Shown in pieces: positions 15,760 through 25,782 of a stretch of 26,931 nt of DNA. The notes below the pieces were generated by a model, which saw only the letters and a list, made by a program, of their open reading frames with translations, did not search any database and was not told the DNA's origin. Each line of letters begins with the position of its first letter. Position 1 is the first letter of the stretch. The translations under genes and the position numbers were made by a program. Source of the DNA: a virus; IMG/VR virus record IMGVR_UViG_3300005856_000091; one strand, written 5' to 3'.

Positions 15760-16290
15760 ATGAAAGACGTGGTTAAAGGTACGTCCATAACAAAGGTCTG
15801 GATGTTCAGAGACCCTGATGGAGCTATTGAGAGGCTTGGAAAGAGTGGTGTACCAGCGGATAAGATACGTGAGATGTTTCCTGACAGGCTTGTAGATGTT
15901 AAGGAGGTTAAAGGAAATGTGTTTCTGAACGAGGGTATCCAGTTCATTTGGCAAGCAGTAACAGGGCAAACAGGATTAACATACTTCGGCTCAAACAGTT
16001 GCTTAGGTGTTGGCGATGGTACAGCTGCTGAGGCTGCAACTCAAACTGGTCTTCAGGGAACTAACAAGTACTACAAGCAAGTTGACTCGGGGTATCCACA
16101 GATATCAGGGACATCGGTGGTATTCCAAGCAACATTTGGATCAACTGAGGCGAATTTTAATTGGTTTGAATGGACAGTGGCAAACGGTTGTGGAGATACC
16201 TATGTCAACCTTAATAGGAAGTATGCTGTGATGGGCACTAAGCAATCTGGTGCTACGTGGATTCTTCAGGTGACGCTAACGATTAGCTAG
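15760..16290 (+). CDS. Structural protein resembling the fibre-anchoring domain of tailed phages
   Basis: NVFLNEG...LGVGDGTAAEAATQTGLQG...EANFNWFEWTVAN...NRK...TK.SG.TW.LQVTLTIS pattern; AGGTGA RBS. Confidence 0.6.
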   Translation: MKDVVKGTSITKVWMFRDPDGAIERLGKSGVPADKIREMFPDRLVDVKEVKGNVFLNEGIQFIWQAVTGQTGLTYFGSNSCLGVGDGTAAEAATQTGLQGTNKYYKQVDSGYPQISGTSVVFQATFGSTEANFNWFEWTVANGCGDTYVNLNRKYAVMGTKQSGATWILQVTLTIS

Positions 16291-19159: not shown

Positions 19160-19810
19160 ATGATCTGGATAAGAAAGTTACTCAAATTGATTTTGCAACA
19201 AGGCTTAACTGTCACGTTTACAGAGGATGAAGCTAGAAAGATAATTGACACAAGGCAGAGGCTTAGACAGTGGTACAACCTAGCATCACAAGGTGTTTTA
19301 GCTGAAACAATTGGTGTTGGACTCAAAGATGCTATCATGGACATTGCAGATGTTGCTAACAAGCTTTATGGGTGGTATGTCCCTCAATTCCAAGTAAGCA
19401 AAATTGCTTTAACTGATGCCGAATTAGAATCTGTCATCAATGATCTGAAGGCGAAGGGTGGTTTGGTTGCTTGGTTTCCGCTTGATAGTCAATACATCTC
19501 TACAAGTCTTGATGAGTTCAAGAAGATTATCTCATGGGACTGGACAGATCATCTACACTACGAAATAAACACATTTGATTGTGAAAACTTTGCATTCTAC
19601 TTTGCATCAAGGGTTGCAAGGATGTTTGGTATTAACACTGTTGGTATTGTGCTTGACTATAGCTCTGCTCATTCATATAACCTTGTCATTGTCAAGGATT
19701 CTCAGGGTGTTAGGTGGATGCTGTACGAGCCTCAACTAGATAGCTTGTTTACCTATGATCAGAGGGATCAAAGCTTTTATGCTATGAAACAGTATGTACT
19801 TCTGTTGTAG
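19160..19810 (+). CDS. Papain/transglutaminase-like cysteine protease domain protein
   Basis: FDCENFA, HSYN and YEPQLD motifs give a Cys-His-Glu triad like the agglutinin C-terminal protease domain; AGGTGGGG RBS. Confidence 0.7.
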   Translation: MIWIRKLLKLILQQGLTVTFTEDEARKIIDTRQRLRQWYNLASQGVLAETIGVGLKDAIMDIADVANKLYGWYVPQFQVSKIALTDAELESVINDLKAKGGLVAWFPLDSQYISTSLDEFKKIISWDWTDHLHYEINTFDCENFAFYFASRVARMFGINTVGIVLDYSSAHSYNLVIVKDSQGVRWMLYEPQLDSLFTYDQRDQSFYAMKQYVLLL

Positions 19811-19819
19811 GGTAAAAAC

Positions 19820-20611
19820 ATGGCTAATCTATCTTTACCTGTTCCAATAGGTTTTGATGTTAGGGGCGAGCTTGGAATAGGCGATACAAAGTCGTCTCTA
19901 CACGGATCACCTACAACAACTGTTAGACAACATGTTATATCTGCACTTGCTAATGGTACTAATCTTGGCACTATAAACAAGATTGTTCTTGTAGATACTG
20001 GAGGTACTGAGAGGGACTCAACAACATCTCTTAGCTACAGCATTAGCTATACAACTAATCAAGCAACATTAACAATTACATGTTCTATAAGCATCACTGC
20101 TGCATATACAATTTCGAAGGTCAGGTCATATAGCGGTACAAACCTATATTTCGAAACATCTCTATCAACAGCTATAAGCGTGGGGTCAGGTGACACTGCT
20201 AATGTTACTCTAAATATCACTATATCGTTCAGCGGTACACTAACATATGGTTCGATATCTGCATCGGCTAGTGCCACATACCCGACATACACTGTTTGCT
20301 ATAGAATTGCACAGGTTCTAAGCGGAGGCATTCAAGTTGGTAACTTGAAGATTGTATCTGTGTATTTCGATCTATACTACTCTGGGACAACAACTGAGAC
20401 AAGCAAGACTATTTCAACTACAAACACTGTGTCAGCTGATGGTCTATCTGTCACAATATCGTGTTCATGGACTGCTGATGCAGACTATGACCTTTGGTTT
20501 ATAGCTCCCACTCTGTATGATGGTAGCCGTGGATGGGGATATACATTATTAACAACAATTAGTGTGCCTAAGAACTCAACAGTTACATACAGTGAAAAGG
20601 TATCGGCATAA
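19820..20611 (+). CDS. Ser/Thr-rich beta-domain virion protein, probably two tandem domains
   Basis: Both halves share KIV...T...T.S...(L/V)TI(T/S)CS......Y...; end of the rightward structural operon. Confidence 0.7.
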   Translation: MANLSLPVPIGFDVRGELGIGDTKSSLHGSPTTTVRQHVISALANGTNLGTINKIVLVDTGGTERDSTTSLSYSISYTTNQATLTITCSISITAAYTISKVRSYSGTNLYFETSLSTAISVGSGDTANVTLNITISFSGTLTYGSISASASATYPTYTVCYRIAQVLSGGIQVGNLKIVSVYFDLYYSGTTTETSKTISTTNTVSADGLSVTISCSWTADADYDLWFIAPTLYDGSRGWGYTLLTTISVPKNSTVTYSEKVSA

Positions 20612-21438: not shown

Positions 21439-21642
21439 TTGAAAGCACGTGAGCTTGTTGAGAAGTATGTGGATGAGGTTATGGCTAAGCAGAGGGAGGG
21501 CTATGTAAAGATTCACTACACAGATGTCATAGCTTCTACGAGGCTTGCTCCAACTGTTGCCATTAGGAGGCTTAGGGAGGTTTGCAAGGAGAAGGGAGGT
21601 GAGTACATATATGGGACATGCATAATATATGTAAAGATGTAG
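21439..21642 (+). CDS. Winged-helix-like DNA-binding protein
   Basis: VKIHYTDVIASTRLAPTVAIRRLREVCKEKGGEYIYGTCII fits an HTH followed by a wing; TTG 21439 (ATA 21427 less likely). Confidence 0.65.
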   Translation: MKARELVEKYVDEVMAKQREGYVKIHYTDVIASTRLAPTVAIRRLREVCKEKGGEYIYGTCIIYVKM

Positions 21643-21657
21643 GGGGGTGTATTTCAA

Positions 21658-22425
21658 ATGAGTAAGGCAGTCTCAAAGACATATCCATCTTCATTGGAGA
21701 TTCTAAGCAGAATTGATGTATCTGTCAAGGAGGGTAAGACAATTGGAGTCTATGGATTTAGCATGGTTGGCAAGTCAATTCTTTCAACAATTATTGCAAG
21801 GGATTTTGCTGGCGATAATGGGAACGCCATTGTCTTCGGCACAGAGAACCACTATGCTGATGAGGACTATAGGAATATGGTCTCAAAGTTCCTTCCGAAG
21901 AACCACTTCATAAACTACTGCAACAATTTGGAGACTCTGTATAAATATATGTATATAGTTAAAAAGAAGAGCTTCGAAGGCAAGGTGGTGCTGATCCTAG
22001 ACAGCTTGTCGTTCATAGCTATTCGTGAGACAGCTAGGTGGAATATGCAGGGGGTGTCAGAGCCAAGGGTCATAGCAGCCAGGGTTATTCCACAGCTCTA
22101 CACGGTTGCAGCGGCTTTCAAGGATCTTGTTGTTGAGAAGCGTGCTCTCGGCATAATGATTATGCATGCTGGTACAACTGCTGGTACTGGGAAGTTCAGG
22201 GGTATAACTGATCTAAGACCTTCTATGGCTGGAAGGGTTGCACACAGCCTAGACTACCTGATATTGATGGAGGCTGAGGGTGCTTCCCTTGACTCTCCAA
22301 GGAAGCTAACATTGGTTATGTCTAGGCTTAGCCCCGAGTCTGAGGGTAAGTCGGTTAGGTTCAGGTTTGCTGGTGATAGGGTAGAGCTGGTTGAGGAGGA
22401 AAAGAAGGATAAGGGTGAGGCGTAA
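21658..22425 (+). CDS. RecA-superfamily (RadA/RadB/KaiC-like) ATPase
   Basis: Walker A GFSMVGKS, Walker B LILDSLS, and MAGRVAHSLDYLILME...RKL resembling the RadA C-terminal region. Confidence 0.85.
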   Translation: MSKAVSKTYPSSLEILSRIDVSVKEGKTIGVYGFSMVGKSILSTIIARDFAGDNGNAIVFGTENHYADEDYRNMVSKFLPKNHFINYCNNLETLYKYMYIVKKKSFEGKVVLILDSLSFIAIRETARWNMQGVSEPRVIAARVIPQLYTVAAAFKDLVVEKRALGIMIMHAGTTAGTGKFRGITDLRPSMAGRVAHSLDYLILMEAEGASLDSPRKLTLVMSRLSPESEGKSVRFRFAGDRVELVEEEKKDKGEA

Positions 22426-22617
22426 ATGGTTGAGCCGTTTATTGAGCTAAGGCTTAAGCTGAAGTTAAAGACATATACAGAGGTAAAGTATTGGATGGGG
22501 GAGCTAGGCATTGAAAAGCCAGAGGAGCTAATAGAATACCTTCTGAAAGTGTTTAAAAAATGTAGAGAAGTCTATCTGAATATAAAAGAAATTTCAAGTT
22601 ATATGGAGGGGAGGTGA
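22426..22617 (+). CDS. RHH-like protein, paralog A
   Basis: N-terminal alternating strand then two helices; abuts the ATPase stop. Confidence 0.75.
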   Translation: MVEPFIELRLKLKLKTYTEVKYWMGELGIEKPEELIEYLLKVFKKCREVYLNIKEISSYMEGR

Positions 22618-22797
22618 ATGAGTGAGGAGTTTGTTGAGGTTAGGCTTAGGCTTAGGCGTGATGTCTATACAGAGATTAGGGAGTGGATGAGGGAGCTGGA
22701 CATCGAGGAAATAGAGGACTTTGTAAAGTACCTTTTAAATGTGCTTAAAACTGCGAGACATGTTTACCTTGAGCTGAAAGATGTTGTAAGATACTGA
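22618..22797 (+). CDS. RHH-like protein, paralog B (59 aa); absent from the ORF track
   Basis: MSEEFVEVRLRLRRDVYTEIREWMRELDIEEIEDFVKYLLNVLKTARHVYLELKDVVRY aligns without gaps to paralog A; GGAGGTGA RBS. Confidence 0.85.
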   Translation: MSEEFVEVRLRLRRDVYTEIREWMRELDIEEIEDFVKYLLNVLKTARHVYLELKDVVRY

Positions 22798-22811
22798 GGT
22801 GAGGAGAAGTT

Positions 22812-22889
22812 ATGGTCAATGAAAAGGCAACTGAAGCTATCGCTTCAATGGTTTCACTATATTCTGAGTTTGTGAGGAGAGGATTGTAA
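22812..22889 (+). CDS. Possible 25-aa peptide
   Basis: MVNEKATEAIASMVSLYSEFVRRGL with GAGGTGAGGAG RBS, fills the operon gap. Confidence 0.4.
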   Translation: MVNEKATEAIASMVSLYSEFVRRGL

Positions 22890-22907
22890 GTGAGGAGGTG
22901 AGCAGAT

Positions 22908-23207
22908 GTGGTTGCGGGGGAAGAGACTGTAAAAGAAAGGCAGTCAAGTGACTTGGTATTGGCAAGAGTATACAGCTTGCTTTTAGTGTACTTTGACCCG
23001 TACTACGACGCCGTGTTGGTGTACGACAAGATTACTAGTGCTTTATCTGATAATCAGAAGCGTGATAGGATAAGGAGCTGTTTAGACAGCTACTCTAGGG
23101 AAGAGGATCAGCTTTGGTGCATATTTAAGGAGGCTGGGGTTGAGGATATGTGGCTGAAGTACAAAAACGTGATTGGATCTAGGTCTTGCATAAAGAGTGC
23201 AAGGTGA
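22908..23207 (+). CDS. Hypothetical protein (99 aa)
   Basis: GGAGGTGA RBS; helical pattern. Confidence 0.75.
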   Translation: MVAGEETVKERQSSDLVLARVYSLLLVYFDPYYDAVLVYDKITSALSDNQKRDRIRSCLDSYSREEDQLWCIFKEAGVEDMWLKYKNVIGSRSCIKSAR

Positions 23208-23662
23208 TTGGAACGAGCAAGGAGAAGAAAATTATGTGTGAGGCTATTAGACATGTTGAGGGGTGGGCGAGTATGGTAGCTGTTCAGCTTCACTATATCG
23301 GGTTTGAGCTGAAGTACTTGGCTGCTTTGGTTAGGAAGATAATTGTGGACAGGTTTGGTAAGCCTGTTGGTGAGGGATGGATATGCGATGAAGAGTCAAA
23401 TGATTGCTACAAATATATAATGGTTTTCAGCTGTGTTGATGGAGATAGGGGCAAGTATGTTATGGTTTAGGTCGAGGAGAATGAGGAGTATGTGTTTTGG
23501 GTTTCAAGCTCGGTTCTAGATGAAAAGGATTTGCCAGTACGTGAAGATGGTGTACCTGTCCAGACAAGTCTGGAGCTTAGGGTTGTGGAGAGCAAGGATG
23601 AATCAAACATGTTTTTAGATTTTGTCGAAGAAATGGATTCCGAATTTGAGGTGGAGGATTAA
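23204..23662 (+). pseudogene. ORF interrupted by one in-frame TAG (23468-23470), acidic C-tail
   Basis: Frame continues for 63 codons after the TAG (VEENEEYVFWVSS...EEMDSEFEVED) to a TAA overlapping the next ATG. Confidence 0.65.
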
Positions 23663-23736
23663 TGAGTGGAACGAAGGTGCTTTAGGAGATGAAATAGGGT
23701 GAAAAGGAGGATAAGAAAGGGGGTGAAAGCAAGTGA
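23662..23736 (+). pseudogene. Short ORF with two in-frame TAGs (23683, 23695)
   Basis: Strong GAGGTGGAGG RBS; MSGTKVL*EMK*GEKEDKKGGESK ending in a TGA that overlaps the next GTG. Confidence 0.4.
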
Positions 23737-23816
23737 TAAGGTTCCAAAACCTGTTTAGGATAAGGAGTGAAAAACCTCCAGTAGATCAATTCTTTGTATT
23801 AATGGATAAGGTGTGA
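23733..23816 (+). CDS. Possible 27-aa peptide
   Basis: GGGGGTGA RBS; MIRFQNLFRIRSEKPPVDQFFVLMDKV. Confidence 0.4.
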   Translation: MIRFQNLFRIRSEKPPVDQFFVLMDKV

Positions 23817-23823
23817 GGCTGGT

Positions 23824-24165
23824 ATGAATGTTGAGCAACTTAGGAAGGCTCTTGATGAGCTGAGGAGTATGTTGCCAATGAGCGAGAAGGAATTTGGTAA
23901 GGTGTTCTTAAATAAAACTGGCTGTGTATGGTCTTAGGTTATAGGAGATGAAGAAACTGTTGAGAAGTATTCTAATATAGAGGATGTCCTCATCTACGTG
24001 TATAGAAACTATCAGATAGTGATAATGTGTGAAGATAATGACTTCGATCTAAGGCTGAGCTACTATATATTTATGTTAGGAAGTGTTGATGGCTATGTAA
24101 TTCATTTTGACTTTGACAAAATTGATTATATTGGGAATAAACGCAGAAATGTGGGTGAGAAGTGA
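23824..24165 (+). pseudogene. 113-codon ORF interrupted by one in-frame TAG (23935-23937)
   Basis: MNVEQLRKALDELRS...GCVWS*VIGDEETVEKY...RRNVGEK; stop directly abuts ATG 24166. Confidence 0.7.
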
Positions 24166-24753
24166 ATGAGTGACCCATTCATATGCTATGAACTGATTGA
24201 TATTGGTAGAAGGGCTAGGTTTGACAGGGATAGCTTCTCTGAGGTTGTTGACCACCTAGCTAAAGATCTAATGGCTTTGATAGACAAGGCGAGGAAAGAT
24301 AACGCAAGTGCATCGCTAGTTAATAGCATGGCGTTCATACACAGAATATTGTTGCAAATCAAGGAAGTCACAGCTAGCAATCTTGAACAGCTTGCGAAGT
24401 ACATAGATGACCTGATAAAATCAAGTGTATGCAGCTTAGAGAAGAGCGATGTTTGTACAGGAGATGAGCTTGCAAAGTTGATAGCTGAGCTTGGGTATAG
24501 AAGTGGTGCTATAGAGTGCTTCAAGAAGAACATTGTTGCCTGCAGGGATATAACAAACATGTTTATCAATGTTGAGGAGGGTGAGAGAATAGTTGAGGTA
24601 ATATATTATGACCCTATCTATGGCATTAAACGCACTAGTGTGCGGTATAAGAAAGGCAGAGAAAAGATTGGAGGAGCGTTCTACCCAGTTGTGCCAGCAG
24701 TTTATGAGAAGTGCCTAGGTATAAAGGTTGAGGTGGAGGGTGATAATAGATAG
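24166..24753 (+). CDS. Hypothetical protein (195 aa)
   Basis: GGGTGAG RBS, long ORF with typical codon usage. Confidence 0.85.
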   Translation: MSDPFICYELIDIGRRARFDRDSFSEVVDHLAKDLMALIDKARKDNASASLVNSMAFIHRILLQIKEVTASNLEQLAKYIDDLIKSSVCSLEKSDVCTGDELAKLIAELGYRSGAIECFKKNIVACRDITNMFINVEEGERIVEVIYYDPIYGIKRTSVRYKKGREKIGGAFYPVVPAVYEKCLGIKVEVEGDNR

Positions 24754-24769
24754 TTAGGTAGGTAAAGAA

Positions 24770-25075
24770 ATGGGCAAGAGGAAGCTGATACTAATACACC
24801 CAGGTGCGACAGTGAGCGGAATAGAGTGCATATGTTTCGACATTTTCTGCGATCCTAAAGAGCTTCCGCCGAGTCTAAGAGATGAGCTTAAAGGTGCTGG
24901 CTATGAGATGAAGAGCTGTAGATATGTTAAGATGCTTGGCGATGAAGATTACTTCATATCTATGGATCTTTGTCACTTATGGGATGATAACATGGCTATA
25001 CTTCTAATAGTGTTTGACCTTGTAAAGCTGGGGTTCGAAGTTAAGTACATTGATTCTGAGGGTAATATAGTGTAG
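24770..25075 (+). CDS. Hypothetical protein (101 aa)
   Basis: AGGTAGGT RBS-like, typical codon usage. Confidence 0.8.
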   Translation: MGKRKLILIHPGATVSGIECICFDIFCDPKELPPSLRDELKGAGYEMKSCRYVKMLGDEDYFISMDLCHLWDDNMAILLIVFDLVKLGFEVKYIDSEGNIV

Positions 25076-25078
25076 GTA

Positions 25079-25270
25079 GTGGCGAAGTGTATGGTGGTAG
25101 CACCTGAGCTTGGTATTGTATTTCTGATAACCTTTTTTGCAATGATTATTGCTTGGGCTGTGACTGCATCACCCTTGAAAAAGTGTGATGAGTACTGTGA
25201 TGAGGGGTCTAGGAAACTGATTTGCTTGCGTTACAAGCTTTTGGGTTACGTAGATTCATGCAATGGGTGA
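25079..25270 (+). CDS. Small single-TM protein with a Cys-rich C-terminus
   Basis: LGIVFLITFFAMIIAWAV hydrophobic segment; start may be ATG 25091. Confidence 0.6.
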   Translation: MAKCMVVAPELGIVFLITFFAMIIAWAVTASPLKKCDEYCDEGSRKLICLRYKLLGYVDSCNG

Positions 25271-25276
25271 CTGACT

Positions 25277-25531
25277 ATGGGGGCAAGTTGCAAGGTGAAA
25301 GAGTTGCAACTTCAAGTTGCTAACATCTATATTAGGGTGTGTGGAGATGATGCCGAGGTAGGCATATCGCCGCCATGGGACATCGTTGGAAGGCATGAGT
25401 ATATATTTATTGACAAAATTGATAGAGCTGTAGATGGCTTGAAACAGCTTGCAAAGGAAATCCTAATCGTGGTCGAGGAACTCGAAAAAATGGTTGGTAG
25501 AAGAGGTGGTTCAAATGAGCATCAAAGCTGA
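25277..25531 (+). CDS. Hypothetical protein (84 aa)
   Basis: GGGTGA RBS; beta-hairpin plus helix pattern. Confidence 0.75.
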   Translation: MGASCKVKELQLQVANIYIRVCGDDAEVGISPPWDIVGRHEYIFIDKIDRAVDGLKQLAKEILIVVEELEKMVGRRGGSNEHQS

Positions 25532-25599
25532 GAAATTGCTGATGCAATAGAAGAATATGTAAAGCAGCATTCATAGATCATGAAAAAATCAAATATTTT

Positions 25600-25782
25600 T
25601 TACAGATCCAGATATGTTAGCAGGTCTTTTACTATTTCCTCTGCTTTTTTGAGGTCTCCAGACTTAATCGCTAGATAGACTTCTACCAACTTATCCTTTA
25701 CCATTGCTTTAAAGCGAATTTTATCGGCAATTATAATGTCTATGGCTTCTCTGCATGTTTCTGATAGTTTTTCGTTTGTCAT
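25600..25782 (-). CDS. Small helical hypothetical protein (60 aa)
   Basis: GGATGAGGG RBS; last gene of the leftward terminal operon. Confidence 0.75.
   Translation of the reverse strand: MTNEKLSETCREAIDIIIADKIRFKAMVKDKLVEVYLAIKSGDLKKAEEIVKDLLTYLDL

Follow-up and report, generated by a model that had tools for sequence, protein, structure and literature searches.

Stepwise decay of an accessory gene block as the very probable origin of clustered in-frame TAG codons in a putative filamentous archaeal virus from hot springs

Dispensable accessory genes and reassigned stop codons have both been described in viruses. The rudivirus SIRV2 carries 25 accessory, non-essential genes out of 54, and many of these are located near the genome termini (PMC11065993). 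In the stop-recoded phages, structural and lysis genes are rich in the reassigned stop codon, which no longer serves as a terminator, and suppressor tRNAs have been acquired (bioRxiv 10.1101/2021.08.26.457843). A 26,931-nt stretch of DNA, which is one entire JGI/IMG metagenomic contig (hereafter the window), was analysed here with reference to these systems. Four in-frame TAG codons of the window are confined to 962 nt (23204-24165), for which the first-pass annotation of the sequence had proposed conditional readthrough or recoding, a mutagenic host defence, or ordinary pseudogenisation or assembly error. The comparison with related contigs indicated that the locus very probably reflects an accessory, dispensable gene block that is turning into pseudogenes step by step in one lineage, by deletions and G:C-to-T:A nonsense changes.

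The window, its relatives and the four TAG codons

The plus-strand ORFs of the window encode glycosyltransferases, a 1,921-aa repeat protein and fibre-like proteins. A 118-aa protein encoded at 1201-1557 on the minus strand matched weakly with the AFV1 capsid protein ORF132 (PDB 5w7g, E = 4e-4) and still more weakly with the rudivirus coat proteins 6wq0 and 3j9x, while the same kind of search with the paralog of this capsid-like protein gave no match. The weak capsid match suggests that the window belongs to a filamentous, Ligamenvirales-like archaeal virus of a hot-spring group; one of the related contigs (IMG 3300005860) originates from Washburn Spring, Yellowstone (PMC7380581).

Related loci are denoted by L numbers. 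Three contigs were nearly identical to the window, namely L001 (IMG 3300025360), L002 (ENA ERZ27249336) and L018 (JGI20127J14776), with overlaps of 13.7 kb for L001 and 13.0 kb for L002. The metagenome scan gave at least three loci, L018 being among the matches listed. No real match was found when window 21600-25600 was searched by blastn, and the first and third ORFs of the block (ORF1 and ORF3) by tblastn, against 50,697 phage records, and the IMG/VR scans using ORF1 and ORF3 did not find any relatives.

Two side observations were made on these sequences. The very strong G-over-C skew of the coding strand reaches its window maximum at 22000-25000 (0.34-0.49 per kb), and the accessory genes of this region are rich in Glu, Lys and Gly codons and very poor in C. 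In L012, positions 478-2052 encode a 524-aa homolog of the 176-aa virion or fibre-attachment protein of the window. Its extra ~348 aa form an in-frame insert which has Cys as the first residue and Gly-Asn as the last, is followed by Ser, and matched LAGLIDADG_3 (E = 8.8e-6) and, weakly, Hint and intein-splicing families in Pfam. The insert looks like an intein with a homing endonuclease in a structural gene of a filamentous archaeal virus, and the window (15760-16290) carries the intein-free allele.

The sequence and its translation agreed on the four in-frame TAGs at 23468-70, 23683-85, 23695-97 and 23935-37, each followed by a G. In ORF1 the affected codon is 79, in a mini-frame (23662..23736) codons 8 and 12, and in ORF3 codon 38. 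The coupled junctions which had been described for the read-through frames, TAATG at 23660-64 and TGAATG at 24163-68, are both present. The features of the block, all on the plus strand, are as follows.

23234..23662, plus strand: ORF1, accessory gene of 142 codons from ATG to TAA, with a nonsense codon at 79
23468..23470, plus strand: TAG from GAG (Glu) by G-to-T, a segregating allele, from the homologs and L001, L002 and L018
23662..23736, plus strand: 24-codon scar of a 225-227-aa gene, from blastn and DNA alignment against L013, L012, L003 and L010
23733..23816, plus strand: 27-codon stump of a 109-aa gene, its translation being the N-terminus of the L010 109-aa protein
23824..24165, plus strand: ORF3, accessory gene of 113 codons, broken at codon 38
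23935..23937, plus strand: TAG from GAG (Glu) by G-to-T, with TAG in the window, L001, L002 and L018
24014, plus strand: C-to-A change private to the window, CCG (Pro) to CAG (Gln); this Pro is invariant in intact ORF3 homologs and the gene was already dead

The alignment of homologs, proposed earlier as the way to the ancestral codon and the mutation type, yielded GAG at 23468, GAG at 23683, TCG at 23695 and GAG at 23935. All four TAGs are therefore G:C-to-T:A transversions, three being G-to-T (GAG to TAG) and one C-to-A (TCG to TAG), and no C-to-T or G-to-A change is among them. The first reading, that Trp (TGG) or Gln (CAG) would fit the protein context, was contradicted by the homologs, which have Glu, Glu, Ser and Glu at the TAG positions; TGG-to-TAG and CAG-to-TAG account for 0/4. 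Among the contigs compared, the in-frame TAGs of these genes occur in the window lineage only, and the window, L001, L002 and L018 agree on those at 23683, 23695 and 23935. The events are thus of the same type as had been noted, all G:C-to-T:A with this class modestly over-represented in the block, though not of the types which had been proposed.

Deletion scars, a broken ORF3 and a segregating allele in ORF1

Of the three neighbouring ORFs described as broken by TAG, ORF1 and ORF3 were found to be so. The middle one is a deletion remnant of the 225-aa gene. It consists of the start codon and two further codons fused in frame to the C-terminal ~25 codons, an in-frame deletion of ~600 bp having removed ~200 codons of the 225-227-aa gene in the window lineage. 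The blastn alignment reflects this gap, as window 23200-23670 corresponds to L013 1848-2318 and window 23670-23746 to L013 2918-3006. The 225/227-aa gene is intact in L003, L010, L012, L013 and L014. Within the scar, the TAG at 23683 aligns to GAG (G-to-T) and that at 23695 to TCG (C-to-A). The middle ORF (23662..23736) is not a gene. Next to it, window 23721-23814 matches L010 1629-1722 at 81%; the 109-aa gene is intact in L010, and its upstream 96-aa neighbour in L010 is wholly absent from the window.

Closely spaced changes were also observed in the block. Three G:C-to-T:A changes fall inside 20 nt of the scar (23683-23702), and an adjacent double substitution, GC to TA, changes Ala to Tyr at 24127-24128 in ORF3. 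The three scar changes and the doublet at 24127-28 could be multi-nucleotide mutation events.

ORF3 was found intact in seven homologous copies from five lineages, with lengths of 113-127 aa. The site of its TAG at 23935 reads GAG in all 7/7 intact copies (L007, L008, L010, L012, L013, L014 and L015), and the 37-aa truncated product was recorded from 4 contigs. The window lineage carries 12 private changes in ORF3, comprising 8 nonsynonymous, 3 synonymous and 1 nonsense, compared to 1-4 per intact lineage (n = 5); this difference indicates relaxed selection. Several of the changes strike residues which are invariant elsewhere, such as Pro64, as would be seen in a dead gene. The predicted structure of ORF3 (pLDDT 49) was too poor to use.

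ORF1 showed a different history. It is present in every related contig examined, and the protein search gave at least 8 intact homologs of 130-153 aa with 80-88% identity, having Glu at the TAG position in most, Val in one and Asp in one. The full 142-aa ORF1 is encoded by a 99.985%-identical contig. The codon at 23468 is GAG in L001 and L002 and TAG in L018, an independent contig. The private changes of ORF1 in the window lineage are 5 nonsynonymous and 6 synonymous in addition to the recent nonsense change, a pattern which shows that ORF1 was constrained by purifying selection until that change. In the clade comprising the window, L012 and L013 the gene start has moved; the ancestral ATG is now ACG and the new ATG (23234) is a former Arg codon eight codons downstream of the ancestral start; in other relatives ORF1 begins with Met-Ser-Lys-Glu-Lys-Lys at the ancestral ATG. 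An alternative GTG start lies at 23204, overlapping the upstream stop. The AlphaFold model of ORF1 (mean pLDDT 63.8) consists of two helices followed by a four-stranded sheet and gave no match in the PDB at E <= 0.001. Neither Pfam nor PHROGs assigned ORF1, ORF3 or the 225-aa protein to a family, the only matches being sub-threshold ones such as MazG-like (E = 0.058).

The haplotypes revealed the order of the two recent changes. Over 13.7 kb the window differs from L001/L002 at two positions only, with G at 23468 and C at 24014 in those contigs. L018, which starts 3 nt before 23468, has T at 23468 and C at 24014 and agrees with the window at all other positions over 3,195 nt. At 23468/24014, L001 and L002 hence have the haplotype (G,C), L018 has (T,C) and the window has (T,A), and it follows that the G-to-T at 23468 came first and the C-to-A at 24014 later. 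Because of L018 and these haplotypes, the TAG of ORF1 is regarded as a real segregating allele and not as an assembly error. As a separate observation, the end of L018 lies 3 nt upstream of the polymorphic 23468 (L018 1-6 = window 23465-23470); an assembly-graph branch would produce a contig break beside this site if both alleles coexist in the sample.

The block, composed of small genes, is situated near the right end of the window, and its gene content varies among the relatives. The 225-aa gene is missing in L009 and L015 and ORF3 in L003 and L009. In L007 60-1881 ORF3 comes first, followed by a 188-aa gene, a 146-aa gene and then ORF1, which places ORF1 downstream of ORF3, opposite to the arrangement of the window. 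Such variable content is typical of accessory genes that would be dispensable.

Origin of the TAG codons and competing explanations

Stepwise pseudogenisation of the accessory block is very probably the correct explanation. Direct observation covers the ancestral codons, the deletions, the polymorphism, the role of TAG as a true stop and the relaxed pattern of substitution in ORF3, and the marks of pseudogenes in the block are intact orthologs together with a lineage-specific lesion, relaxed selection (in ORF3) and accompanying deletions. The dispensability of the genes, and the loss of function of the truncated products, are judged from the sequence comparison and appear probable. The older events, common to four assemblies, are the in-frame deletion of ~600 bp that took ~200 codons of the 225-aa gene, and the loss of the 96-aa gene and of most of the 109-aa gene. 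Also old are two nonsense changes within the remaining scar (GAG to TAG and TCG to TAG) and the knockout of ORF3 by GAG to TAG at codon 38, after which mostly amino-acid-changing substitutions would have accumulated in this gene. The GAG to TAG change at codon 79 of ORF1 is recent and still polymorphic in the population, and the latest step would be the Pro to Gln change in the dead ORF3. Throughout the block, TAG would end translation as elsewhere in the genome. The earlier suggestion of ordinary pseudogenisation or assembly error is thus borne out in its first part; the second part is unlikely, three TAGs being present in four assemblies and the fourth in two.

The chance expectation was calculated for this decay. 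In the three genes in their intact form (L013), 4.2-5.1% of random substitutions make a stop. The one-step nonsense paths lead to TAG in 47-51%, and 39-42% of these have G as the next base. GAG is the dominant Glu codon, making up 7% of accessory-gene codons, and is followed by G in 16/33 cases. The shared TAG plus G appearance arises because GAG is heavily used, half of the time with G next, and G-to-T turns GAGG into TAGG. Among 29 lineage-derived substitutions in 23204-24165, 1.2-1.5 nonsense changes are expected and 4 were seen (P(>=4) = 0.035-0.063); the probability that all four are TAG is ~0.05-0.07, and that all four share one same next base ~0.03, all of these tests being post hoc and two of the four events sitting in already dead DNA. 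The view that four such events are hard to attribute to random decay was therefore weakened, as the excess over chance is small at P(>=4) = 0.035-0.063 and post hoc, and the TAG pattern is not regarded as demanding a special mechanism.

Adaptive loss is an unlikely alternative. Here the knockouts would have been favoured, for example through escape from a host defence which senses these proteins, or through loss of a linked module after its first member. The nonsense count slightly over the neutral expectation, the three neighbouring genes struck independently, and the location of the only two recent SNPs of 13.7 kb in the block are all in line with it. ORF1 is otherwise conserved in all relatives and its nonsense allele occurs also in a second assembly (L018); since ORF1 is present in every relative and was under purifying selection before the nonsense change, its loss may not be neutral. 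However, the numbers are small and the tests post hoc, and relaxed constraint alone speeds fixation in dead genes. The scar TAGs could not be selected as knockouts because the 225-aa gene had already been deleted. The searches of Pfam and PHROGs and the PDB comparison of the ORF1 model gave no function and no link to defence.

A locally raised rate of G:C-to-T:A mutation, with the stops as a by-product, was weighed next and is likewise held to be improbable; the candidates are 8-oxoG-type miscoding and an error-prone repair patch. All four TAGs and the SNP at 24014 belong to this class, which makes up 12/29 of the changes in the block compared to 11/72 elsewhere on the same lineage (p = 0.008) and to 15% of the private 4-fold-degenerate and nonsynonymous changes across the virus group (p = 0.0009 against the block). 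The GC to TA doublet at 24127-28 and the three changes within 20 nt at 23683-23702 point in the same direction. Both differences between the window and L001/L002 over 13.7 kb are of this class and lie inside the 962-nt block (naive P = 0.005). Once the four ascertained TAG sites are removed, however, the share becomes 8/25, with p = 0.084 for the same lineage and 0.042 for the virus group. The derived-substitution density of the block (2.8-3.6%) is not above that of the downstream accessory region (4.4-5.3%). G-to-T and C-to-A are about equally frequent per base when the threefold excess of G over C on the strand is allowed for, and hence there is no strand signature. To our knowledge, no targeted system yields G:C-to-T:A changes. 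The excess may be due to chance, to a local process prone to G-to-T, or to the raw mutational spectrum becoming visible where DNA is unconstrained, and is taken as a weak lead. As one combined claim, positive selection inactivating ORF1, the 225-aa gene and ORF3 (e.g. for defence escape) and/or local G:C-to-T:A-biased mutation is considered unlikely. Each of the two could be a refinement of the decay reading.

Conditional amber readthrough or TAG recoding, by which the accessory genes would be kept expressed, is very improbable. A sense TAG restores the frames with their ancestral coupled junctions, and three of the four TAGs align to Glu. Against this, TAG acts as a true, conserved stop codon in the present virus group. 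It ends 8/32 of the plus-strand ORFs tabulated for the window, 4 of them as TAGG, so that TAGG is equally common at genuine stops, and it terminates 2-7 genes in each of five related loci. Homologous stops interchange between TAG and TGA; for the 216-aa gene the window has TAG where L012 has TGA, and the 71-aa gene is closed by TAG in three loci and by TGA in four. When TAG is translated as sense, the TAG-ended genes at 19808, 21640 and 25073 become fused to the next in-frame gene. A search with ARAGORN gave no tRNA for either the window or 8 related loci, although the complete virus genome may extend beyond the contig. The residues aligned with the four TAGs are E, E, S and E, with one Ser among them, and two of the codons lie in the scar which lacks ~200 codons. 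Beyond its TAG, ORF3 is under relaxed selection, including the change of an invariant Pro, and genomes which do not otherwise differ carry either the GAG or the TAG allele. The local recoding that had been suggested is accordingly left without support, in view of the conserved terminator, the TAG/TGA swaps, the absence of a tRNA in the contigs searched, the two amino acids, the scar and the unconstrained ORF3. The contrast which had been drawn with about 20 kb of core genes free of internal TAG is circular, because an ORF by definition contains no stop, and TAG terminates the 8/32 ORFs mentioned above, 4 as TAGG.

Other candidate sites and motifs were also considered. The TAG junctions at 19808-19822 and 21640-21660 were rejected as readthrough sites, as the homologs have TGA there, and the junction at 25073-25081 was rejected as a conserved TAG behind a conserved C-terminus. 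TAGG was rejected as a special motif, since it ranks 97th/256 among the window tetramers, TAGA is commoner and GAGG ranks 3rd.

A deaminase footprint (C-to-T or G-to-A), or a sequencing or assembly error, is scarcely credible, since the ancestral GAG and TCG leave no transition among the four and nothing speaks for a deaminase, while three TAGs recur unchanged in four assemblies drawn from JGI and ENA data sets, and L018 carries the fourth as well. In favour of an error, the two window-private differences from L001/L002 are of the G-to-T/C-to-A type, and G-to-T and C-to-A are classic oxidative library artefacts. Mutagenesis of the deaminase type (C-to-T or GG-to-AG) was refuted by the ancestral codons, which make all the changes transversions.

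Comparison with known systems

The locus resembles the hypermutation by APOBEC-like deaminases in its clustered, one-class substitutions which make stops, but deaminase footprints consist of C-to-T/G-to-A transitions, whereas every event here is a G:C-to-T:A transversion. Oxidised guanine (8-oxoG) has G:C-to-T:A as its mutational signature. The class of all four TAGs and of 12/29 derived changes is the same as this signature; in contrast to it, there is no per-base strand bias, the overall rate is not raised and the enrichment is weak after ascertainment correction. We know of no mechanism for the local targeting of 8-oxoG-type mutation.

The result is mainly negative, as one candidate of stop-codon recoding or defence-driven editing in an archaeal virus is removed. 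Such cases can be settled from public metagenomes alone by means of the ancestral codons, the deletion scars, a segregating allele and TAG as a conserved terminator. The assemblies, with their three haplotypes, document the stepwise loss of the accessory block in a natural virus population of hot springs. ORF1, the 225-aa gene and ORF3 are flagged as putatively dispensable accessory genes and are possible anti-defence candidates. If selected loss and/or local mutation bias were true, the block would record, in a natural population of an uncultured archaeal virus, gene loss that is selected and still under way.

With the stop-recoded phages (bioRxiv 10.1101/2021.08.26.457843) the locus shares the in-frame TAGs and the frames which are restored if TAG is sense, whereas here TAG terminates conserved genes, only decaying genes contain in-frame TAGs, and the tRNA search of the window and the related loci was negative. 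The closest likeness is to the accessory genes of the Ligamenvirales as described for SIRV2 (PMC11065993), which are also small, fast-evolving and near one end of the linear genome, and whose presence varies among relatives; removal through deletions and point knockouts is likewise common to both. In contrast to SIRV2, the present lineage is an uncultured one from hot springs, distant from the Sulfolobales viruses (capsid match E = 4e-4), and its block is judged dispensable by comparison. The present block very probably belongs with such decaying accessory genes.
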